Made by a program: the position numbers and the translations under genes. A DNA stretch of 43,027 bases from contig JAUYJY010000058.1 of assembly GCA_030699205.1 (NCBI GenBank), positions 1 to 43,027 on the forward strand, written 5' to 3'. The first letter of the stretch is position 1. Each line of letters starts with the position of its first letter. Origin of the DNA: Candidatus Pacearchaeota archaeon (GTDB lineage: Archaea; Nanobdellota; Nanobdellia; Pacearchaeales; GW2011-AR1). Of this stretch, positions 1 through 30,917 are shown piece by piece. Under the pieces are notes generated by a model, which was not told the DNA's origin, made no database searches, and saw nothing but the letters and a program-made list of their open reading frames with translations.

Positions 1-138
1 CGGAAGAACAAAAAACTGTTCAAAATATGGACAATTCTGTTGATTAGCACAATTGTTTTCAGAATTGTACAGATAGAGAATTCTGGACAAATAGTGTTCC
101 AATTATCAGAATTATCTATATTTTGTCTTCTGCTATAT
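1..138 (+). mobile_element. R-type palindromic MITE-like repeat, copy R1. Only the hairpin-2 half is present because the window starts inside it, and it is interrupted by a nested element.
   Basis: nt 1-27 (cggaagaacaaaaaactgttcaaaata) and nt 121-138 (ttttgtcttctgctatat) match the 3' half of the copies at 11782, 14984, 27624 and 30824. 93 unrelated nt sit between them. Confidence 0.8.
28..120 (-). mobile_element. Nested R-like element (variant R-c) inserted in the hairpin-2 loop of R1
   Basis: Read on the minus strand it starts TATAGATAATTCTG and ends CAGAATTGTCCATA. It has two hairpins with related stems (AGATAATTCTG/CAGAATTCTCT and ACAATTCTG/CAGAATTGT). The uninterrupted site caaaaTAttttg is visible in the other R copies. 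Confidence 0.6.
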
Positions 139-8623: not shown

Positions 8624-9078
8624 TTTATTAAAAACGCAAGCGATTGCGTGAAATATAAACCAATTTTTAATTTTAGGATGTTATGTTCCAAATGCTTTCA
8701 ATGTGTTTTTAAATCGTGTGTAAATGTGTAATTCTGTAAGTTATTATCTCAAATTACCCAATTAAGTTGTCCGCCCACTATTAATAAAATATTTAGCAAT
8801 TAATGATTTAACTAACCAACTTTTTGATAATTGCCTGCGATATATTTTTAAAAATCTGTCCTGCAAGATAAAATTCTAACCTTTATTATATCCGCGGTTA
8901 ATTAATCAATCTTTAAAGGTGATAAAATATAATATCTTGAAAGTATTATTAATGTTAATATTTGAATAAAATCAATTTTAGTTCGTATTTTCCCTAATCT
9001 CTGAATATTTCAGCAACTTTCCCCCATTCAAATAATTTCTATCAAACTAACAATTTCAATTTAAACTTCTCTATAATT

Positions 9079-11781: not shown

Positions 11782-11875
11782 TATAGTCTAAGACATTTAT
11801 AATTGAGCAGTATTTGTCTTAGACTATTAGCGGAAGAACAAAAAACTGTTCAAAATATTTTGTCTTCTGCTATAT
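11782..11875 (+). mobile_element. R-type MITE-like repeat, copy R2
   Basis: tatagtctaagaca-(19 nt)-tgtcttagacta-tt-agcggaagaacaaaa-(loop)-ttttgtcttctgctatat. This is near-identical to R3, R4, R5 and R7. Confidence 0.85.
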
Positions 11876-11939: not shown

Positions 11940-12494
11940 ATGAATAAAAAGACAATCAACTCTGTTTTCTTTAGATATATTCTTCTCGTTGTTTTGGGTA
12001 TTCCTAATTTATTTATTTTTTATTTCATATTAACCCCCTTAACTTTCTATCCCTCATATTTCTTCATAAAATTAATCTATGGTGCCCAAATTATTGCAGA
12101 AAACACAATATTCTTTAAAGGATATTCTGCAATAATAATCCCTGCCTGCATTGCAGGCTCTGCATATTATCTTCTTACAATATTAAACTTAACAACCCCC
12201 TTAAATTTTAAAACCCGCATTAAGAGTCTAATTTTTTTAATCTTATCTTTTTTAATTCTAAATATAATCAGAATTGTTTTTTTCTCCGCACTCTTTGTAA
12301 ATAAAGGATATGACTACTTCAATGTTACTCATATAGCGACTTGGTATTTCGGAAGCACAATATTAGTTATTTTAATATGGTTTGCAAACGTTTTCATATT
12401 TAAAATAAAATCAATTCCAGTATATTCCGATTTTAAGAACCTATCAAATAGTTTATTAAACAAACATTCTAAAAAATATATGGAGAAAAAGTAA
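11940..12494 (+). CDS. Exosortase/archaeosortase-family membrane protein (pacearchaeosortase-like)
   Basis: 184 aa, polytopic. It has an ordered Cys (IIPACIAGS), Arg (LNIIRIVFF) and His (NVTHIATW), matching the order of the family catalytic residues. Confidence 0.55.
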   Translation: MNKKTINSVFFRYILLVVLGIPNLFIFYFILTPLTFYPSYFFIKLIYGAQIIAENTIFFKGYSAIIIPACIAGSAYYLLTILNLTTPLNFKTRIKSLIFLILSFLILNIIRIVFFSALFVNKGYDYFNVTHIATWYFGSTILVILIWFANVFIFKIKSIPVYSDFKNLSNSLLNKHSKKYMEKK

Positions 12495-13160
12495 ATGTAT
12501 AATTTAATCCCTCAAATAATTGAATCCCTCGTTAGTTTAATTGGCTCATTAGGGTATTTCGGAATTTTCATCGGGATGTTAATAGAAAGCTCTTTTTTTC
12601 CTTTTCCAAGCGAAATAATTCTTCCTCCTGCAGGAGTTTTAATCGCCAGAGGAGATTTATCCCTTTCAATTGTATTTTTAATTGCCATAGCGGGCAGTCT
12701 TGCAGGTGCTTTTATAAATTATTTCATCGCCCTTCATCTTGGAAGAAGAGTCATTAATAGATTAATGAATAAATATGGAAAAATATTATTCCTAAACTCA
12801 GAACATTTAGATAAATCAGAAAAGTATTTCAAAAAGCATGGCGAAATAACAACATTCACCGGCAGATTAATCCCAGGAGTAAGGCAAATAATCTCCCTTC
12901 CAGCAGGATTTGCAAAAATGAATCTTTTTAGGTTTTCAATATTCACGATGATTGGCTCAGGAATATGGTCAATAATCCTAATTTACATTGGAATTGCATA
13001 CGGAAACAATCAAGAAGCAATAAAACCCCTCCTAAATTCAATAACTCTAATTGTTTTGTTTATTCTATTAATAATAGTTATTTCCTATATAATTATAATG
13101 AAGAAAAAAAAGCAAAACAGCAGAGATAAAACATCTCCTCAGATATCCATTACACTTTAA
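12495..13160 (+). CDS. dedA: DedA/VTT-domain membrane protein
   Basis: LIESSFFPFPSEIILPPAG and TGRLIPGVRQIISLPAG motifs. The ATG immediately follows the stop of the upstream gene. Confidence 0.8.
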   Translation: MYNLIPQIIESLVSLIGSLGYFGIFIGMLIESSFFPFPSEIILPPAGVLIARGDLSLSIVFLIAIAGSLAGAFINYFIALHLGRRVINRLMNKYGKILFLNSEHLDKSEKYFKKHGEITTFTGRLIPGVRQIISLPAGFAKMNLFRFSIFTMIGSGIWSIILIYIGIAYGNNQEAIKPLLNSITLIVLFILLIIVISYIIIMKKKKQNSRDKTSPQISITL

Positions 13161-13326: not shown

Positions 13327-13420
13327 ATATAGCAGAAGACAAAATATTTTGAACAGTTTTTTGTTCTTCCGCTAATAGTCTAAGACAAATACTGTTCAAT
13401 TATAAATGTCTTAGACTATA
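13327..13420 (-). mobile_element. R-type MITE-like repeat, copy R3 (inverted relative to R2 and R4)
   Basis: Its reverse complement is identical, by eye, to copy R4. Confidence 0.85.
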
Positions 13421-13564: not shown

Positions 13565-14230
13565 TTATGTATTTGCCTGTGTTGCATCTACAACTATCTG
13601 CAATTCAAGTCTTTCCACAGCTTCTAAAATCTGACAGCTTGAAACCTGTATTTTATAACATTTTCCATTCAAGTCTATTCTTGTCTCGTTTCCCTCGGAT
13701 ATTTCAATTACAATGTTTCCAGGTCTGTTCTCGCAAGTAACCCATTCTTGTCGTTTATATCCTGCATCCCAGAAATTAAGATTTCCCCCCAAAACACTAA
13801 GTTGATTATCACTCAAAAAACTCGATAGGCTTGCAATTGCTAAAGGTCCCTGTTTGCACTGATCAATGCCTTTAGGGTCTACGGAAATAAACACAGCACT
13901 CTTTCTATCAAATGCAGTTCCTTCTCCCTCAATGGGGATTTTATCCAATTCCCTTGGATCATTTCTCAAATAAAAATTATATTTTATAAGCTTCCCATCC
14001 AATCCTTTCAGAAAATAAAAATGGTGAAATATTGGGATATTTCCAAGTTTCTCCTCTGTAAATTTAACTCCATTATACTCAAAATTATTTAAGCTCTTGA
14101 AAAAAACCCCTGCGATAACAAACACAACTGCTAAAAAAACTATAAACAATAAAATTCCTAAAAGTTCCTTCTCAAGCTTTCTTTCTTTCGCAGGCTTCTT
14201 CTCCACTTTTTTTACTTTATTTTTAATCAT
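13565..14230 (-). CDS. N-terminally anchored extracytoplasmic protein, unknown function
   Basis: 221-aa ORF with a Lys-rich N-terminus, one TM (LLGILLFIVFLAVVFVIAGVFF) and a Cys-containing soluble domain. Confidence 0.6.
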   Translation of the reverse strand: MIKNKVKKVEKKPAKERKLEKELLGILLFIVFLAVVFVIAGVFFKSLNNFEYNGVKFTEEKLGNIPIFHHFYFLKGLDGKLIKYNFYLRNDPRELDKIPIEGEGTAFDRKSAVFISVDPKGIDQCKQGPLAIASLSSFLSDNQLSVLGGNLNFWDAGYKRQEWVTCENRPGNIVIEISEGNETRIDLNGKCYKIQVSSCQILEAVERLELQIVVDATQANT

Positions 14231-14266
14231 TTTAATAAAATCTATTAATTTCCTTAGTTTTTAAAA

Positions 14267-14812
14267 TTAATTGAAGCCCAAAACCTTATACAAAAATGCA
14301 TCAACTATTCTTAAATCTCCCTCTATAAATATGCAATTTTCATTTTGAGTAACTTTATTCATCCCTGAGTCCCTCCATATAATCATATTTTCTTCACAAG
14401 TTTTTTCAGGTAAATCTCTCTCGCACTCCCCATAACACGCTTCCTGAATTCTTCCCGCAAACCTGCCTAAATTATTTGCCAATTCTGTTAAAACCGCAGA
14501 ATTTTCCGCATCAATATACAAATTCTTTCCGGAATAACTAGACAAACTCTTTGTAAAATTCAAATCACCCATTTCGGTCTCGCCTATGCTGTAAGTAAAA
14601 TAATAATTTTGCCCCCCAAATGGGTAAATCCAATATTGCCCGTCATAATATGGCTCTTCCCCGTTTTCCTGCCCTGCATTTCCCTCCGAAAGCCCGTTTA
14701 AAGCAAAACCCGCAGTGCTAAAAACCAACAAAGCTATCAAAATAATTCCCACAATAAGCTTCTTTTTCTTTTCAGATTTTTCAATTTCATCAGGACTTTT
14801 TAATCTTCTCAT
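14267..14812 (-). CDS. N-terminally anchored extracytoplasmic protein, unknown function
   Basis: 181-aa ORF with one TM (LIVGIILIALLVFSTAGFAL) and a soluble domain containing 4 Cys. Confidence 0.6.
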   Translation of the reverse strand: MRRLKSPDEIEKSEKKKKLIVGIILIALLVFSTAGFALNGLSEGNAGQENGEEPYYDGQYWIYPFGGQNYYFTYSIGETEMGDLNFTKSLSSYSGKNLYIDAENSAVLTELANNLGRFAGRIQEACYGECERDLPEKTCEENMIIWRDSGMNKVTQNENCIFIEGDLRIVDAFLYKVLGFN

Positions 14813-14983: not shown

Positions 14984-15076
14984 TATAGTCTAAGACATTT
15001 ATAATTGAACAGTATTTGTCTTAGACTATTAGCGGAAGAACAAAAAACTGTTCAAAATATTTTGTCTTCTGCTATA
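14984..15076 (+). mobile_element. R-type MITE-like repeat, copy R4
   Basis: Full two-hairpin element flanked by TA. Confidence 0.85.
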
Positions 15077-15112
15077 GATAGGAATAGTAAATACGATTAG
15101 TTAATGCTTCTG

Positions 15113-15604
15113 CTATATATTTTCTCCAAATTGAAAAGAAAGCGCGTTATACTCTTTTGTGTCATAAACACAAACTCCCTTATCATTCCACAAGACAAAT
15201 TCTGCTATTCCAACATCAAGAGCCATTTTACTGCAAATAGTGCAATATGGTTCTCCAGCTCTTGAAGGTGTTCCATTATCATCAAGACGGATAAAATACA
15301 ATCTTGAGCCAGATAATTTATTAGGATTTTTTCTAAGAGCATCTATTATGGCTCTTTGTTCAGCATGAACACAACAAGTTTTATCCGTCACTTTTTTATG
15401 ATAAGAATCTTTAGAATAGGAACACCTTCTTTGCTCTTCATTGTCTTGTGGCGGACTATTAAAGCCACTGCCAATAATTTCATCTAACTGAACAATTACA
15501 GAACCACATTTTGATCTTTTACAAGTTGCGTTCTGTGCAACTTCAGTGGCTTTAGCAATATATTCAAGCGCTTTCTTTTCTTCATTTCCAGATAAGTATC
15601 TCAT
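15113..15604 (-). CDS. dCMP/cytidine deaminase-family zinc enzyme
   Basis: CVHAEQRAI (HAE) and PCTICSKM (PCxxC) zinc-binding motifs. Confidence 0.85.
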   Translation of the reverse strand: MRYLSGNEEKKALEYIAKATEVAQNATCKRSKCGSVIVQLDEIIGSGFNSPPQDNEEQRRCSYSKDSYHKKVTDKTCCVHAEQRAIIDALRKNPNKLSGSRLYFIRLDDNGTPSRAGEPYCTICSKMALDVGIAEFVLWNDKGVCVYDTKEYNALSFQFGENI

Positions 15605-24395: not shown

Positions 24396-26492
24396 CTATA
24401 CAATATTAGTCGCCGAAGCAGTTAAACTGCATTGGTTTGGTGCAGGTTGATTTCCAAACTCGTCAGCACATTTTATATAATAAACAATATTGGGTTTCCA
24501 TTCAGCATAACTTGTTGTTTTTTCAGTCGCGGGATTATGTATCATCTTTATTCCCTCGTCAATATTAAAGTTACAGCTGTTTAATGAATAAGTGCATTCG
24601 GCAGGCTCATTCGTAACTATCTTTAAAGTATCCAAAAAATGATATGCCCTTGCAACCATTGGTTCTGTAACATCTACAAATACATTAAAGCTCGTGGAAT
24701 CTTCCGCACTATTCCCTCCCGCATCTATACATCTAAAGAAATAGTTATAATCTCCTGAGATTAATGTTAAAACTTGCCGATGTTCAAATCCCCCCGAATC
24801 AAACATCGCAACATAACTCCCTTCTTCTCCAGAATCAGAAAAATAACAAACTGCTTCTCCTTCCTTTGCCCCGTCATCCGTCTTCACATATAATTCAATT
24901 TCAACAACTTCTGTGCTTCCAGTTATTGTTTCATTAGGAGCAACGGAAAGAATGCTCAATGGTTGACTTCCAAGCAAATTGAGATTATAACTTCCCACAT
25001 TAACATTTCTCTCATTATCTGGCTTTTTAGGCTGGTCCTTGCATCTAAAATAATAATTATTCTCTTGTCTGTCAACTATTCCAGTGAGAGTAGTAGAACA
25101 AGTATAAAGCTCTCTTGCATTTATTTCAGTTAATTTTGTTGCACATTGCATTTCTTGTTCCATTTCCTCATACGCCTTGTCTTGAACACTCCATTTACAT
25201 TCCGAAGGTTCATTTACATAAATTTCCATCGGGGTTTCCCCTGAATTATATGAAATATAACTTCCCGATTTAATGGAAGTATCAACAATTATCGGCGGAG
25301 TTGTATCCGGACTTGGGTCCACACAAAATTGGAAGTCAAACTCTCCCACATTCTCATTCCCATTTTTATCCCTGCATCTAACAAATAGATTATATCTCCC
25401 ATCATTCTGTAATTCAGGAGCTTCTGAATTTATCGCATCAGGCGACGGCAAACTCATTACCTGTGTATGATTATATAAATAAAAGTTGCTTTTTCCAAAG
25501 AAGAAACTCATTTCATCCAATGTATCTTTATGAACTATATCTATTTTACATTGTGCTGGTTCATTAGTGGTTATTCCAAAGCTTAATGGTGTAAACGCCT
25601 GCAAACACCCGTTACTCACATCTTCCCTAACAATTTTAGCTCCCAAACTTGGAGGCCTCGTATCATGATTAGTGTATTTATGCTTTTCCGTTAATGGCTC
25701 CTGCCAAGGTGTTATAGTCGGAGGACTTGCATCATTTGGATTCACCCAAGCACATTTTTCTTCAGTAGTTCCGGAATTTACAATCTCACATGCTTGCCCT
25801 AAAGCCCTGCACCTATATTCAGAGCAAGGCCTAAATGGGTCTGCGTTGCATTTCTCACAATCCCCTCCGCCGACAGGAGCTTCAAAAGGAAGACATTGAA
25901 AATCAACCCTGACTTCCTTTTCAGATTTATATAATAAAATAAATACAACAACACCGACCGTAATTCCGATAATTGGTCCTGCAACTCCCTGAGTCAATCC
26001 ATCAATCCCAAATAATGTATCTTTAGCAGCACTACCAATCAAATTAGAAGAAAAAAATCCCGCAAAAGTTCCAACACCCGCCGCAGTGCTTAAAGCATCA
26101 GCCACATTTTTATCAACCCCAAATAAAGTCGTCAATAACTTAACCCCCATATACACAGAAAGCCCCCAAACAGCCCCCTGCATCAACGCACTCGGAATTT
26201 TCCCCGGCGTCGCACCAAACGCTTCTCCAGAATATAACTTCCCGAAGAAACCTGATTCTGTTGGGTTTGGAGTTGTTCCTGCCTCTCTTCCAGCCTGCCA
26301 AGCTTTATCCCTTCCGAGTAATTTATCGAATAAACTCCAAGTAGGTTCTCCTCCTTCTTCCTGCCCGCTAACCCTCTGCGTTTCCCCAATCAAAAACGCA
26401 AACGAAACAACAGAAAAAACTATAAGAAATATTTGCGTAAAAACCAACGTCGTCCCAACTTTATACGGGGGAAACTTTCCTCTCTTTTGCAT
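24396..26492 (-). CDS. 698-aa membrane/surface protein. It has an N-terminal anchor, a Gly-rich membrane region, a Cys-knot-like segment and Ig-like repeats, and is a paralogue of the C-terminal part of the 1333-aa protein.
   Basis: VDFQCLPFEAPVGGGDCEKCNADPFRPCSEYRCRALGQACEIVNSG aligns with VDFSCLPWQPPSGGQSCEECDSDDLGCSEYKCNSLGQNCELLNEG in ORF 33463-37464. The NEPSECKWS and NEPAECTYS repeat markers are shared. Confidence 0.75.
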   Translation of the reverse strand: MQKRGKFPPYKVGTTLVFTQIFLIVFSVVSFAFLIGETQRVSGQEEGGEPTWSLFDKLLGRDKAWQAGREAGTTPNPTESGFFGKLYSGEAFGATPGKIPSALMQGAVWGLSVYMGVKLLTTLFGVDKNVADALSTAAGVGTFAGFFSSNLIGSAAKDTLFGIDGLTQGVAGPIIGITVGVVVFILLYKSEKEVRVDFQCLPFEAPVGGGDCEKCNADPFRPCSEYRCRALGQACEIVNSGTTEEKCAWVNPNDASPPTITPWQEPLTEKHKYTNHDTRPPSLGAKIVREDVSNGCLQAFTPLSFGITTNEPAQCKIDIVHKDTLDEMSFFFGKSNFYLYNHTQVMSLPSPDAINSEAPELQNDGRYNLFVRCRDKNGNENVGEFDFQFCVDPSPDTTPPIIVDTSIKSGSYISYNSGETPMEIYVNEPSECKWSVQDKAYEEMEQEMQCATKLTEINARELYTCSTTLTGIVDRQENNYYFRCKDQPKKPDNERNVNVGSYNLNLLGSQPLSILSVAPNETITGSTEVVEIELYVKTDDGAKEGEAVCYFSDSGEEGSYVAMFDSGGFEHRQVLTLISGDYNYFFRCIDAGGNSAEDSTSFNVFVDVTEPMVARAYHFLDTLKIVTNEPAECTYSLNSCNFNIDEGIKMIHNPATEKTTSYAEWKPNIVYYIKCADEFGNQPAPNQCSLTASATNIV

Positions 26493-26530
26493 ATAAAAGA
26501 TAACAACTTATTGTTTATAAATATTAGTAG
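26386..26530 (-). repeat. F0: 5' end (first ~35 codons), start codon and TATA-box region of the 698-aa gene. This is the master copy of the F direct repeat.
   Basis: ccaatcaaaaacgcaaacgaaacaacag...ctttcctctcttttgcatataaaagataacaacttattgtttataaatattagtag recurs at 27344, 29235 and 30081. Confidence 0.8.
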
Positions 26531-26692
26531 ATTGCTTTCAAAATTTCAATTGTCTTTCCCAGAAACAACTTCAAAATTTAACCTTGCTAATCTCCTTCTA
26601 TTACTTGTCCAGCTTGCAGTATATTTTCCAATGGATAACTTTATACCACTATTTTGATTATACACTCCTCCAACTCCCCTTGATTATTCCAC

Positions 26693-27031
26693 TTAATTTA
26701 AAATTTTCCCAATATTCATCTTTAATTCAGGTATATTTTCTTCTACAACTTTCCAAATAGTTTCTAAGTTAACACCAAAATAGTGATGCATCAGTTTATC
26801 TCTCATTCCCGCGATTTTAATCCATTCAATATGGGGATATCTTCTTCTAAAATTATCTGGGATATTCTTCACAGCCTCGCCAATCACTTCAATACTTCTT
26901 ATTAATGCATTTTGCAATTTTTTATCTTTTAAAAAGTCAGATTTAGCGATGCCCTTTGTAAATTCTTCAATATCTTTTATGGAATCGATTATGTGCCTTA
27001 AAAATATCAAAGAATCTTTCTTTTCATTCAT
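26693..27031 (-). CDS. hepT: HepT-like HEPN (DUF86) toxin
   Basis: R-x4-H motif in GMRDKLMHHYFGVN. 112 aa, overlapping the upstream NTase gene by 4 nt. Confidence 0.8.
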   Translation of the reverse strand: MNEKKDSLIFLRHIIDSIKDIEEFTKGIAKSDFLKDKKLQNALIRSIEVIGEAVKNIPDNFRRRYPHIEWIKIAGMRDKLMHHYFGVNLETIWKVVEENIPELKMNIGKILN

Positions 27032-27309
27032 AAAATATTGACCTCTTCACTTAATATTCTTTTTTTAAGCAGATAATTAATCCCCCCATAAGTAAGCAAA
27101 TCCACTTTTTTCTTCAGCACTTTCTTAATTTCCATTTCCATTTCAACTAAATCAAGCAAACTTCCATCAAAGTCAATCAAAATATCCACATCACTATTTT
27201 TTTTCTGCTCCCCTCTTGCGTAACTACCAAAAATTCCTGCTTTTTTTACCCCATACTTCTTCAAAACAGAAATTATTTTTCCCTTAATTTTATTAATTTC
27301 TTTATTCAT
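27028..27309 (-). CDS. mntA: MntA-like minimal nucleotidyltransferase antitoxin
   Basis: GIFGSYARGEQKKNSDVDILIDF (GS...DxD). Confidence 0.8.
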   Translation of the reverse strand: MNKEINKIKGKIISVLKKYGVKKAGIFGSYARGEQKKNSDVDILIDFDGSLLDLVEMEMEIKKVLKKKVDLLTYGGINYLLKKRILSEEVNIL

Positions 27310-27343
27310 AAAAATAAGTATCTTAATTGATATATAAAATTAT

Positions 27344-27510
27344 CCAATCAAAAAAAACTAAACACAGAAAAAACTATCAAGAATATTTGCCCAAAGACTA
27401 AATTATTAATTTATACAGTATCTCCGATGAGTTTTCTTAAGGGAACTTTGAATAATCAACCTTTCCTTCAAAGTTCTCTTAACTCTAAGATTTATCTTAT
27501 AAATCTTACA
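27344..27510 (-). repeat. F1: degenerate copy of the F repeat
   Basis: ccaatcaaaaaaaactaaacacagaaaaaactatcaagaatatttgcccaaagactaaatta aligns with F3. The distal part is decayed, with a ~40-nt insertion, and there is no ATG. Confidence 0.5.
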
Positions 27511-27623: not shown

Positions 27624-27717
27624 TATAGTCTAAGACATTTATAATTGAAAGGTATTTGTCTTAGACTATTAGCAGAAGAACAAAAAACTGTTCAAAATAT
27701 TTTGTCTTCTGCTATAT
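27624..27717 (+). mobile_element. R-type MITE-like repeat, copy R5
   Basis: Canonical sequence. The stem-2 change agcGg to agcAg converts a G-T pair to A-T. Confidence 0.85.
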
Positions 27718-27785: not shown

Positions 27786-29108
27786 ATGGAATTCAAAGAC
27801 AGGAAAAACGAATTAAAAGAAATAAAAAGTATTTTAGATAGTAAGAACTTTGAATTTTTGATAATATATGGCAGAAGAAGAATAGGAAAAACAGAGTTGA
27901 TATTAGAATCAACAAAAAATAAAAAAAGAATTTATTATTTAGCAACAACAGAAAAGAACGCAGAAAGATTTTACAATGTATGCTTAGAATATAGTAAAGA
28001 TGTTGGAAAATTAAAACAAGATATTGAAATAATAATAGATTATTTAAAAGACAAGACAGAAGTTATAATAATTGATGAATTTCAAAATTTAATAAAAGAA
28101 AATGGCAATATTTTAAACATCTTCCAAAGCCTAATTGATACAAAATTAAAACACACTAAATTAAAATTAATATTGCTTGGTTCATCAGTTTCAATAATAA
28201 CGTCCAAGGTATTAAGCTATAAAAGTCCTTTGTACGGGCGAAGAACAGCATCTTTTAAATTAAAACCTATAAACTTCTTCGACTTAAAAGAATTCTTTCC
28301 AAATAAATCCTTGCAAGAGTTAATTGAAATATATGGTTTTTCAGATGGAATTCCATACTATATAATAAAGATTAATGAAAAAGAAAACTTTTGGAAATGG
28401 TTTGAAAATGAAATTAAACAAGAAAGAAGTTTTTTAAGAGACGAAATAGACTTTATAATGCGATACGAATTCGATAACCCGAGTACTTATAAAATAATTT
28501 TGGAAGCAATCGCAAATGGAAAAAGTAAATTGAATGAAATAAGGCAATATACCAAATTAGAAAGAACAGATATTAGTCCTTATATAAAAAATCTTTTAGA
28601 CGTTGATTTAATTAAAAGAGAAGTTCCTCTAACAGAGAACTTAAAATCAAGAAATGGAAGATACTTTATAAGTGATAACTTTTTATCATTCTGGTTTAGG
28701 TTTATTTATCCAAATTCAAGCAGTATAGAATCCGGATTATTCAAAATTGAAAGAATAAAAGAGAAATATGCAGAATACATTGGCAAGATATTCGAGAAAG
28801 TTGTATTGCAGTATATAATAAAAAATAAAATAATTGAAGCAGATAAAATAGGAAGGTGGTGGTTTAAAGATAAAGAAATAGATTTAATAGCATTAAATGA
28901 GAAAAATAAAGAGGCAACTTTTATAGAGTGTAAATGGAAAGAAGGTATAAATCCAATAAGCCTGCTTCATGATCTTAAAGAAAAGGCTATTCATTTCGAA
29001 TGGCATAATAACAAAAGAAAAGAAAAATACTTTCTTTTTGCTAAATCTTTTAGTAAAGAAATAGAAGATAAAGATGTAACTTTAATCGAGATTAAAGACA
29101 TGCAATAA
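27786..29108 (+). CDS. Archaeal-type AAA ATPase with a C-terminal DUF234-like (nuclease-fold) domain
   Basis: Walker A YGRRRIGKT and Walker B VIIIDEFQ. The C-terminal EIDLIAL...ATFIECKW resembles a D...ExK nuclease core. Confidence 0.75.
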   Translation: MEFKDRKNELKEIKSILDSKNFEFLIIYGRRRIGKTELILESTKNKKRIYYLATTEKNAERFYNVCLEYSKDVGKLKQDIEIIIDYLKDKTEVIIIDEFQNLIKENGNILNIFQSLIDTKLKHTKLKLILLGSSVSIITSKVLSYKSPLYGRRTASFKLKPINFFDLKEFFPNKSLQELIEIYGFSDGIPYYIIKINEKENFWKWFENEIKQERSFLRDEIDFIMRYEFDNPSTYKIILEAIANGKSKLNEIRQYTKLERTDISPYIKNLLDVDLIKREVPLTENLKSRNGRYFISDNFLSFWFRFIYPNSSSIESGLFKIERIKEKYAEYIGKIFEKVVLQYIIKNKIIEADKIGRWWFKDKEIDLIALNEKNKEATFIECKWKEGINPISLLHDLKEKAIHFEWHNNKRKEKYFLFAKSFSKEIEDKDVTLIEIKDMQ

Positions 29109-29113
29109 AGTAA

Positions 29114-29219
29114 TATAGTGCAACAACTTAGTTCTTCGGTTCTTTTTTGTTGTTGCACTATTAGCGGAGCAACTAAAAGCAACCGAAAGATTTAGTTGGT
29201 CTGCTATATATATTTTATC
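29114..29219 (+). mobile_element. R-type repeat, divergent variant R6 (R-b)
   Basis: It has the same termini and linker (tatagt...actattagcgga...tctgctata), but both stems and both loops are replaced by different, still complementary, sequences. Confidence 0.75.
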
Positions 29220-29234
29220 AAATCACAATCAAAA

Positions 29235-29366
29235 ACGCGAACGAAACAACAGAAGAAATTATCAAAAAAATTTGCGTAAAACCAAATTATAATTTAAGAC
29301 ACCAACTCTTTTTTGCATATGTTAAATAAAGATTTATTGTTTGTAAATATTAGTGGAATTAAGCCA
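29235..29366 (-). pseudogene. F2: truncated copy of the 5' end and promoter of the 698-aa gene
   Basis: The minus strand reads ATG CAA AAA AGA GTT GGT..., giving MQKRVGVLNYNLVLRKFF-stop. The upstream tttgtaaatattagtgg matches F0. Confidence 0.65.
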
Positions 29367-29412
29367 TTTCCCTTATAAGAATGTTTATAAGTTAAATTCT
29401 CTATTATTAAAA

Positions 29413-29775
29413 ATGGAAAAAGAATATAAATTATGGATGAAAAAGGCAGAAGAAGATTTAGACACGGCAAAGTATAATTTTGAAGGAAAAAAATTTTCGG
29501 CAAGCTTATTTTTTTCGCAACAAGCAGCCGAAAAGGCACTCAAAGCTTTTAACATAAAAATAAATAAAGAGTTAATTAAAACACATGATTTGTCTCTTCT
29601 TGCAAGAAAAGTAAATGCCCCTGTGGAAATAGAAAATTTGTGCAAATCCCTTAGTCCCGCATACCAATCAACGAGATACCCCGATATAATTCAGAAAAAT
29701 GACATGAAAGATGAGGCAAAAGAACTGCTCAAATCAGCGGAGGAAATTGTAGAATGGGCAAAAAAGAAATTATAA
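29413..29775 (+). CDS. HEPN-domain protein (classical HEPN, partner of the downstream NTase)
   Basis: 120 aa starting from MEKEYKLWMKKAEEDL. The patterns FSQQAAEKALKA...HDL..L and YQSTRYPD are typical of HEPN. It overlaps the NTase gene by 22 nt. Confidence 0.7.
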   Translation: MEKEYKLWMKKAEEDLDTAKYNFEGKKFSASLFFSQQAAEKALKAFNIKINKELIKTHDLSLLARKVNAPVEIENLCKSLSPAYQSTRYPDIIQKNDMKDEAKELLKSAEEIVEWAKKKL

Positions 29776-30071
29776 GAATGATTAATGGCTTTATAAAAAA
29801 AGCACAAAAAGAAATTGCAATAAATAAAGTAATATTATTTGGAAGCCAAGCATCTAATACAACGCATAAAGACAGCGATATAGACTTAATAATAGTATCT
29901 CCAGATTTTGAGAGTATGAGTGCTATTCAACGTGCCGCAAAACTATACAACTATTGGGAAGCCCTGTATCCTGTGGATTTTATTTGTTACACTCCAAAGG
30001 AATTTAATATTCTAAAAAGAAGAATTACCATTGTAAAAGAAGCTCTTTCCAAAGGAATTATTGTAGTCTGA
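29754..30071 (+). CDS. Minimal nucleotidyltransferase (MNT-type)
   Basis: LFGSQASNTTHKDSDIDLIIVSP (GS...DxD). Confidence 0.75.
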   Translation: MGKKEIIRMINGFIKKAQKEIAINKVILFGSQASNTTHKDSDIDLIIVSPDFESMSAIQRAAKLYNYWEALYPVDFICYTPKEFNILKRRITIVKEALSKGIIVV

Positions 30072-30076
30072 ATTTT

Positions 30077-30213
30077 TTATCCAATCAAAAACGCAAAAGA
30101 AACAACAGAAAAAACAATTAAAAATATCTGCCCGAAAACTAAATTATAATTAAAAACCTTTCCTCTCTTTTGCATATAAAAGATAACAACTTATTGTTTA
30201 TAAATATTGGTGG
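30077..30213 (-). pseudogene. F3: near-identical truncated copy of the promoter plus the first 32 codons of the 698-aa gene
   Basis: The minus strand 30175->30077 encodes MQKRGKVFNYNLVFGQIFLIVFSVVSFAFLIG-stop. F0 encodes ...FTQIFLIVFSVVSFAFLIGETQ. The ~55 nt around the ATG and TATA box are almost identical to F0. Confidence 0.8.
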
Positions 30214-30221
30214 AAATTAAA

Positions 30222-30823: not shown

Positions 30824-30917
30824 TATAGTCTAAGACATTTATAATTGAAATGTGTTTGTCTTAGACTATTAGCGGAAGAACAAAAAACTGTTCAAAATAT
30901 TTTGTCTTCTGCTATAT
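30824..30917 (+). mobile_element. R-type MITE-like repeat, copy R7
   Basis: Canonical termini and stems. Loop 1 differs (ttgaaatgtgt). Confidence 0.85.

Follow-up and report, generated by a model that had tools for sequence, protein, structure and literature searches.

Introduction

Transposable elements of the miniature inverted-repeat type (MITEs) that derive from the IS630/Tc1-mariner group, such as RUP of Streptococcus pneumoniae, Nezha of cyanobacteria, MITEEc1/ERIC and SM1 of Sulfolobus, are about 100 bp long, non-coding and mostly intergenic; they duplicate a TA dinucleotide, end in inverted repeats of about 25-30 bp, occur in many copies and are moved by a transposase acting in trans. 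The Correia elements (NEMIS/CREE) of Neisseria are bacterial elements of about 100-150 bp, present in hundreds of copies, with a TA duplication, TATAG ends, 26-bp inverted repeats, a central IHF site and a single long RNA hairpin, and we know of no transposase that mobilises them. Here we describe R6, an element of the archaeal contig JAUYJY010000058.1 (43,027 nt; the whole stretch that was analysed, called the window below), which is a non-autonomous mobile element of the MITE kind and consists of two adjacent hairpins that are constrained by pairing, not by sequence.

Palindrome-associated transposable elements (PATEs), the non-autonomous forms of IS200/IS605, contain little beyond two end hairpins, conserve structure over sequence and can show a strand bias, and IS200/IS605 elements carry subterminal hairpins and insert 3' of a tetra- or pentanucleotide without duplicating it. 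The attC sites of integrons are single imperfect hairpins with R and L boxes (GTTRRRY), which form cassette boundaries beside an integrase and whose extrahelical bases mark the strand. Repetitive extragenic palindromes (REPs) exist as dimers with 1-2 bp spacers (PMC3733652), and REP doublets, or REPINs, are moved by RAYT transposases of the HUH Y1 type (PMC3116915, PMC3733652, PMC2817692). A bulk census counted about 105 MITEs per Mb in one Woesearchaeon, the elements themselves being left undescribed (PMC11602168), and we found no paper describing the double-hairpin architecture of R6 in archaea.

Results

R6 is a double-hairpin element flanked by TA

R6 comprises the following parts.

29114-29208, plus strand: R6, a Type II double-hairpin MITE of 95 nt including the TA at either end (direct sequence reading; 101.6 bits with a family covariance model whose seed included R6)
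29115-29161, plus strand: hairpin 1 of R6, stem 29115-29127 with 29149-29161, 21-nt loop 29128-29148
29162-29206, plus strand: hairpin 2 of R6, arms 29162-29177 and 29191-29206, loop 29178-29190
29157-29168, plus strand: conserved junction ACTATTAGCGGA, made up of the hairpin 1 foot, a single-T linker and the hairpin 2 foot

The terminal TAs lie at 29114-29115 and 29207-29208 and the element proper, TAG...CTA, at 29116-29206; the end at 29219 given in the first-pass annotation of this DNA was 11 nt too far. Direct reading gives TATAGTGCAACAAC-TTAGTTCTTCGGTTCTTTTTT-GTTGTTGCACTAT-TAGCGGAGCAACTAAA-AGCAACCGAAAGA-TTTAGTTGGTCTGCTA-TA, laid out as TA-TAG TGCAACAAC, 21-nt loop, GTTGTTGCA CTA-T-TAG CGGAGCAACTAAA, 13-nt loop, TTTAGTTGGTCTG CTA-TA. 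The general plan of the element is TA, TAG-stem 1-loop 1-stem 1'-CTA, T, TAG-stem 2-loop 2-stem 2'-CTA, TA, in which the first 13-16 nt of each outer end recur inverted further in and pair with that copy to give the two hairpins. Stem 1 of R6 is a perfect helix, as first described, and measures 13 bp instead of 12. Stem 2 had been described as a changed sequence, and the change is real; its 16 positions do not form a perfect helix, as they include one G.T wobble and one G.G mismatch, and the canonical (Type I) stem 2 has the same G.T and a bulged A. Loop 1 contains TTCGGTT (29135-29141), the reverse complement of AACCGAA in loop 2 (29181-29187), in agreement with the first reading. For R6 and for the canonical copies alike, folding as RNA (z -6.2 to -8.9) and folding as DNA (z -6.6 to -7.4) both give two adjacent hairpins.

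As the first-pass annotation had claimed, the sequence common to R6 and the canonical copies is limited to TATAGT, ACTATTAGCGGA and TCTGCTATA. R6 is related to the canonical copies and does not share these short termini by chance: the 12-mer TAGTCTAAGACA occurs 10 times against 0.11 expected, and R6 scores well with the family model, of whose seed it was part. Its closest relatives are the Type II copies in loci L019, L020, L034 and L077. The junction ACTATTAGCGGA is exact in five of the six intact window copies, the exception being the copy at 27624, which has A at 27674; this is the G-to-A change that had been reported to turn a G.T pair into A-T, and it is confirmed there. Across 54 aligned sequences, the junction columns are invariant or nearly so.

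The stems covary

For the analysis of the stems, we aligned 54 distinct sequences with MAFFT, four members with damaged stems included, so that the set was not selected for pairing. Over stem 1, proximal stem 2 and the loop-loop helix, 91.6% of the cells form standard pairs, compared with 75.9% after shuffling and 33-50% when the partners were slid, and the covariation score is 0.40 against at most 0.16 for the slid versions. Of the 13 pairs of stem 1, the five at the foot do not vary and the other eight have changed on both sides, with as many as six kinds of pair at one position. When the changes were placed on a minimum spanning tree, 33 double changes in stem 1 kept the pair, three lost it and 19 breaks were one-sided, and the 31 stem 1 haplotypes are mostly fully paired. 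The Type II variants of stem 1 (CAACCAAT, AAACCAAC, CCTCCAAC and GCAACAAC) each come with their exact complement beside a constant stem 2; because the two arms of stem 1 change jointly while stem 2 does not, it is intrastrand pairing that is kept and not four identical protein half-sites. The covariation suspected at the outset is thus present, and strong, in a larger alignment. From the proposal that selection acts on the fold and not on the sequence, we retain selection or filtering on the fold and do not take over the specific mechanisms attached to it (an HUH enzyme, attC-like sites or RNA).

Hairpin 2 carries imperfections that are themselves conserved. A G.T pair (G.U in RNA; columns 59/98) is present in 45 of the 54 sequences, a G.G (columns 62/95) in 23 Type II copies, and a bulged A or T.T is retained in Type I; when an imperfection is corrected, the change is in the inner arm only and turns G.T into A-T, never into G-C. 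Among sporadic mismatches, the difference between G.T (14) and A.C (7) was not significant and gave no clear strand signal.

The complementary loops belong to long terminal inverted repeats

Loop complementarity is present in every type, the longest exact match having a median of 6 nt compared with 4.3 in shuffled loops. On the spanning tree, the loop-loop segments showed 63 one-sided breaks and six compensated changes, and three of the five intact Type I copies of the window have mismatches in them. The distance between either complementary segment and its end of the element is 21-22 nt in Types I, II and III, and the ends TATAGTCTAAGACA and TATAGCAGAAGACA together with this second matching block make up an inverted repeat of 28-30 bp, in Types II and III as well. 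Read on the opposite strand, hairpin 2 roughly repeats hairpin 1, part of the loops included, so that the element is an inverted doublet. The loop complementarity is real but weak and, being equally far from both ends, is best read as part of a 28-30 bp terminal inverted repeat, a repeat that makes stem 1 resemble stem 2 and loop 1 complement loop 2. These two likenesses, first reported as separate facts, are both present; what does not hold is their separateness, half 2 being an inverted copy of half 1. We rejected a kissing-loop contact as the main explanation, because the segments are collinear with the ends and poorly maintained within subfamilies.

Filled and empty sites

R6 and its relatives have the properties by which MITEs are generally recognised: a length below 300 bp (93-95 bp, or 162-268 bp in long forms), no open reading frame (ORF), inverted repeats, a TA duplication and many copies. 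The initial view that the repeat was more than a decaying MITE would show is not upheld, since the TA duplication, the inverted repeats, the palindromic AT-rich target, the nested insertions and the very high copy number identify it as a MITE. Five independent comparisons of filled and empty sites showed in each case a single TA changed to TA-[TAG...CTA]-TA.

Pair 1: nested element of the window; the site is AAAATATTTTG in uninterrupted copies
Pair 2: nested copy in loop 1 of the L028 element
Pairs 3 and 4: L083 and L084, reciprocal, either site being filled in one and empty in the other
Pair 5: the 283-nt repeat of L068, copy a against copy b, one filled and one empty

A 4-bp TATA duplication was ruled out by the nested cases, which have ATAT and GTTA as left flanks. 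The target flanks, compiled from 63 sites, approximate AAW-TA-TYT and are AT-rich and roughly palindromic. The copies are mostly intergenic, three of 65 lying inside a called ORF, and in tandem gene contexts 11 copies are sense and 16 antisense.

The repeat of the fifth pair, about 283 nt long, is conserved and non-coding; its hairpins are GC-rich and its centre is variable, and it was seen at L068 6639-6921 and 9784-10066, at L031 1059-1336 and in L083 and L084. It is 100% identical in its two occurrences in L068, serves as a target of the MITE and was not matched by Rfam. Its neighbours are a tRNA that probably contains an intron (L068 7063-7168) and a repeat of 56 nt that overlaps the 3' end of this tRNA.

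Subfamilies and distribution

Public data were scanned with the termini and the junction fixed and the rest free, and the matches were subjected to a hairpin test. True relatives were found at nine genome loci and about 55 metagenome loci, from metagenome-assembled genomes (MAGs) of Woesearchaeota/Nanoarchaeota, from groundwater metagenomes and from two Methanosarcinales MAGs. Bacterial matches of the genome scan and 17 metagenome matches failed the hairpin test and were set aside as chance. The relatives fall into three subfamilies with TATAGT, ACTATTAGCRGA and TCTGCTATA in common.

Type I: stem core AAGAC, loop segments TTGAGCAG / CTGCTCAA; the canonical form of the window
Type II: stem core CCAAC, loop segments TTCTTCGGTT / AACCGAAGAA; R6 and many metagenome copies
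Type III: stem core ATTCA, loop segments GGAACTTTT / AAAAGTTCC; Methanosarcinales MAGs

Hairpin 2 of R6 is nearly identical to that of many metagenome Type II copies, and its stem 1 (GCAACAAC/GTTGTTGC) is a private haplotype, fully paired. R6 had been taken for a copy that diverged in place; it is instead this genome's lone member of a widespread sister subfamily, Type II. In the source groundwater metagenome, k-mers inside Type I are deeper than those of unique flanks by a factor of several hundred to about 1,400, and R6 has the depth of a single copy. The Type I depth and the identity of two window copies speak for recent activity. Bursts of the element are carried by the source groundwater run (SRR13727534), by the Woesearchaeota MAGs CAYIGH01 and CAYIOA01 and by the Methanosarcinales MAG CAYUOQ01. 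Type III copies (L005, L006, L007, L012 and L065) have a GC content of about 26% inside contigs of 42-48% GC that belong to the two MAGs labelled Methanosarcinales (the MAG labels are taken as given), compared with 33-38% GC for the DPANN loci. The family may have crossed between phyla, as judged from base composition and carrier labels.

The covariance model also found more distant types with altered termini and the same plan, for example TATACATCTTTCCC...GGGAAAGATGTAT-TAGAGATTCCCGA...TCGGGAATCTCTATA, and long forms of 162 and 268 nt contain extra hairpins between hairpin 1 and hairpin 2. A pattern search for solo hairpins returned TA-flanked single hairpins such as L063 1276-1319 (TATAGTAACAGAC...GTCTGTTACTATA being an example), and a further single-hairpin element is located on the minus strand of L082, near 8726-8830 in reverse-complement coordinates. 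One hairpin alone may be a mobile unit.

How the element may be moved

We consider it probable that R6 is one copy of a non-coding MITE of about 93-95 bp, from a superfamily of DPANN archaea and some Methanosarcinales that is mobilised in trans and of which the hairpin-forming copies are propagated. Copies occur in both orientations in intergenic DNA and also insert into other copies; the subfamilies have common hairpin feet and different, mutually compensated stems, and R6 is the sole Type II copy in a genome in which Type I multiplied. The transposase would be encoded elsewhere, and our first choice, as the most likely mover, would be a Tc1/mariner/IS630-like DDE enzyme: the element duplicates TA, its target is symmetric and its inverted repeats are long and bipartite, and IS630/Tc1-mariner elements are characterised by a 2-bp TA duplication, by a target that is symmetric and AT-rich, and by about 28 bp of inverted repeat. 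If only copies with hairpin-forming ends, as cruciform or single-stranded DNA during transposition, were propagated, this would explain the covarying stems with fixed feet.

Several observations weigh against this explanation. A Pfam scan of the 20 window ORFs showed no transposase of any kind, and none is among the commonest Pfam families listed for 286 ORFs flanking about 65 copies; the search for HUH/Y1, IS630-like or other transposases recommended at the outset thus came back empty for these sequences, in which the Pfam matches are archaeal housekeeping and toxin-antitoxin genes. We also looked for an autonomous copy by way of solo hairpins 1 or 2, solo right ends and TATAG...CTATA pairs with a spacing of 130-4000 bp; the 680 kb of loci contain no ORF enclosed by matching ends, the yield being only long non-coding forms and pairs of separate copies, and there is no full-length insertion sequence with matching ends and a DDE transposase in the window or in these loci (as distinct from whole genomes). 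Positions 6-9 of stem 1 differ between the outer ends and are always compensated in the inner arm, which a DDE enzyme binding double-stranded ends would not by itself explain. In 48 of 65 insertions (p = 1.5e-4), the top strand of the element coincides with the C-rich strand, a bias that a symmetric double-strand mechanism does not predict and that is entangled with gene orientation (split 40:24), the skew following gene orientation; the conserved, asymmetric imperfections of hairpin 2 are likewise not expected from a plain double-strand mechanism. Finally, the flanking TAs have other possible origins: an element that brings a terminal TA of its own may insert 3' of TA, or a serine recombinase may use TA as a 2-bp crossover. 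The inner-arm compensation, the asymmetry of hairpin 2 and the strand bias keep alive two other explanations, single-strand mobility through a hairpin-reading enzyme and template switching.

In the former, a hairpin-recognising HUH (Y1) enzyme, as in IS200/IS605-derived PATEs or REPIN/RAYT, would read the top-strand feet and the imperfections of hairpin 2, cut beside the feet and insert 3' of TA. Pairing and not sequence constrains the stems, the non-Watson-Crick positions conserved in hairpin 2 are strand-specific, the covariance model favours the top strand over the bottom by 40-50 bits, orientation is biased by strand composition (48:17), the nested insertions are located in hairpin loops, and the inverted doublet and its TA-flanked single-hairpin relatives (L063 1276-1319) recall REP/REPIN. 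We nonetheless regard this as unlikely. The termini TAG...CTA are symmetric, with TA on either side and a roughly palindromic target, and the hairpin begins at the very end of the element, whereas the ends of IS200/IS605 are asymmetric and lack inverted repeats, and guide sequences separate their cleavage site from the hairpin; an unpaired GTAG-type tag is absent, and the bias in orientation is bound up with that of the genes. Neither the window nor the flanking-ORF families listed include a Y1 or RAYT gene, and REPIN-RAYT systems are described from bacteria only. A broader form of the idea, which we put forward tentatively and consider unlikely, is that archaea have an enzyme for which folded DNA, single-stranded or cruciform, is the substrate, whether a counterpart of REPIN-RAYT or IS200/IS605 or a new kind of structure-specific transposition; such an enzyme would need no more for recognition than the conserved feet of the hairpins and the asymmetric imperfections of hairpin 2. 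Template switching in a hairpin during replication or repair, which copies one arm to the other, would compensate the stems without selection and make the fold a by-product. Quasipalindrome correction of this type is an established mutational mechanism in bacteria, the arms of stem 1 are nearly always perfect, even in the solitary R6 with its private haplotype, and the sporadic G.T (14) and A.C (7) counts do not differ significantly, without a clear strand signal. Such an origin appears improbable to us, given that the imperfections of hairpin 2 (G.T in 45 of 54, G.G in 23, bulged A or T.T) persist uncorrected across subfamilies, that corrections always fall in the inner arm and give A-T from G.T, never G-C, and that the architecture is kept across types with unrelated stems, implying the spread of foldable copies.

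Two further explanations fare worse. A structured RNA, that is, a multi-copy small RNA, terminator or processing signal in which the hairpins and a kissing-loop contact are selected in the transcript, is in keeping with the strong fold z-scores, the G.U wobble conserved on the top strand, the UUCG-like and GAAA-like loop motifs with their complementary segments, and the position of R6, with a T-run, 5 nt past a stop codon. Against it, the copies run either way relative to the genes beside them and are slightly more often antisense, the TA duplications and nested insertions show mobility of DNA, loop complementarity is poorly kept within subfamilies, and Rfam covariance models matched only tRNAs in the window and four loci; an RNA function is the least supported explanation and very improbable. 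The terminal TAs might instead be the 2-bp crossover of a serine (IS607-like) or other site-specific recombinase and not a staggered-cut duplication. Identical dinucleotides flank every copy, and the filled and empty pairs are equally compatible with conservative exchange at TA. No such enzyme was found in the window or among the flanking-ORF families listed, and long inverted repeats with an AT-rich palindromic target fit the Tc1/IS630 type better, so that we give this explanation very little credence. Recognition by HUH/Y1 enzymes, in attC-like fashion or as RNA, to which the first-pass annotation had pointed, gains no support from the searches, which found neither an enzyme in the sequence examined nor an Rfam match, and the trans-mobilised MITE remains our preferred explanation.

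A nuclease family was noticed next to Type II copies. PF10107 (Endonuc_Holl), an endonuclease family related to archaeal Holliday-junction resolvase, matches ORFs at L077 13427-13882 (E 2e-24) and L084 1058-1495 (E 2e-22), each 200-260 nt from a Type II copy and at non-orthologous positions. We rejected the link as within chance, since every ORF examined adjoins a copy, although a nuclease specific for DNA structure deserves to be kept in mind. Searches of IMG/VR viral contigs with hairpin-2 patterns gave no match and hence no sign of a viral carrier.

Other copies in the window

Besides R6, the window holds five intact canonical copies and one cut by the window start, seven copies in all.

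1-137, plus strand: truncated Type I copy, cut by the window start and beginning within the 5' arm of hairpin 2
28-118, plus strand: nested double-hairpin element of another type (TGG...CTA), TA flanks at 26-27 and 119-120
11782-11874, plus strand: Type I copy, covariance-model score 94.5 bits
13328-13420, minus strand: Type I copy, 93.3 bits, identical to the 14984 copy over 93 nt
14984-15076, plus strand: Type I copy, loops perfectly complementary over 9 nt (TTGAACAGT/ACTGTTCAA)
27624-27716, plus strand: Type I copy with the G-to-A change at 27674, 70 nt upstream of the ATPase gene that precedes R6
30824-30916, plus strand: Type I copy, identified by sequence and covariance model

An unfiltered covariance-model scan of the window recovered the seven copies and nothing more, the nested element being marginal (E 0.04-0.11). 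The copy at 13328-13420, initially assigned to the plus strand, is on the minus strand. The nested element splits loop 2 of the truncated copy, which reads AAAATATTTTG when uninterrupted; its stems use AATTCTG/CAGAATT four times, as had been noted, and further copies of its junction are present in the source metagenome. Seven differences separate the five intact Type I copies, and six of these are confined to six positions of loop 1 (11807-11812, 27649-27654 and 30849-30854), in the segment complementary to loop 2, and loop 2 is invariant among them. The window starts inside a Type I copy and an independent assembly of this region (L098) breaks about 110 nt further in, at the repeat; assembly ends inside copies indicate that the repeats fragment assemblies of this genome.

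A right-end fragment, GCTTCTGCTATA, is located at 15106-15117, 30 nt past the 14984 copy, and is probably the remnant of a truncated copy. Between 11782 and 15076, three Type I copies alternate as plus, minus and plus and bracket two gene pairs, 11940-13160 (a membrane protein and a VTT/DedA-like protein) and 13565-14812. This layout may be that of a composite transposon, which it resembles, or may be due to chance.

Host and genomic neighbourhood

The window is part of a DPANN archaeal chromosome. It has a GC content of 31-38% and encodes FtsZ, Spt5, L11, PCNA, a primase, HEPN/nucleotidyltransferase pairs and an archaeal ATPase with DUF234; one of the loci with relatives, L016, is syntenic with the stretch of the window from 9 to 20 kb. 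The gene preceding R6 is an ORF of 440 aa at 27786-29108, an archaeal ATPase (PF01637) with DUF234, which has a Type I copy 70 nt upstream and R6 5 nt downstream; by inspection, its C-terminus (...IDLIAL...FIECKW) looks like a PD-(D/E)xK nuclease motif.

A second repeat family of about 70-150 nt (CCAATCAAAAACGCAAACGAAACAACAGAAAAAACTAT...TTTGCGTAAAA...TTTTGCATATAAAAG...) is present at 26381-26532, 27335-27401, 29220-29358 and 30076-30215, one of these repeats beginning 12 nt past R6. They are direct repeats bracketing toxin-antitoxin-like cassettes, HepT/MNT (26693-27309) and HEPN/NTase (29353-30071), and could be cassette-boundary or recombination sequences.

Discussion

DPANN genomes are very small, yet this family fills a visible share of their intergenic DNA, with seven copies in 43 kb. 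The elements break assemblies and mark variable regions rich in toxin-antitoxin cassettes. With feet that are fixed, stems that are free as long as they pair, and subfamilies side by side, the family amounts to a natural experiment that points to structure-dependent mobilisation, and the identity of the enzyme would show whether archaea own a transposition system that reads hairpins. If an enzyme acting on folded DNA is indeed involved, the family would have crossed between DPANN archaea and Methanosarcinales and could mark DNA exchange between symbiont and host; the elements may also trace DPANN-Methanosarcinales exchange.

Among described elements, the IS630/Tc1-mariner MITEs are like the R6 family in size, non-coding intergenic placement, TA duplication, inverted repeats and copy number. 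The R6 family differs from them in having two adjacent hairpins joined by one nucleotide in place of one long hairpin and in the covariation of its inner arms, and neither the window nor the 680 kb of loci yielded an IS630-like parent. With PATEs it has the short two-hairpin build in common; unlike them, it has inverted repeats, hairpins 1-2 nt from its ends and TA on both sides. It resembles attC sites in the combination of conserved structure with variable sequence and in strand-marking mismatches, but it has no R boxes, consists of two hairpins and is dispersed at TA sites, with no integrase in the window. REP doublets and REPINs are like it in being inverted palindromic doublets that fold separately or as a single hairpin, in their variable stems and loops, and in occurring as single units too. 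REPs, however, have at one end a GTAG or CGTC tag that is not paired and show no TA duplication, whereas TAG/CTA of the R6 family are paired feet; REPs are also associated with a RAYT gene that is present once and has REPs on both sides, and no such gene was found in the sequence examined here. At least one defining feature was thus absent or not found for each of the IS630-derived MITEs, REPINs, PATEs and attC sites, and we place the R6 family outside all four. The Correia elements have the TA duplication and the TATAG termini of the R6 family and no sequence similarity to it beyond TATAG(T); together with REP doublets with 1-2 bp spacers, they are its closest look-alikes.

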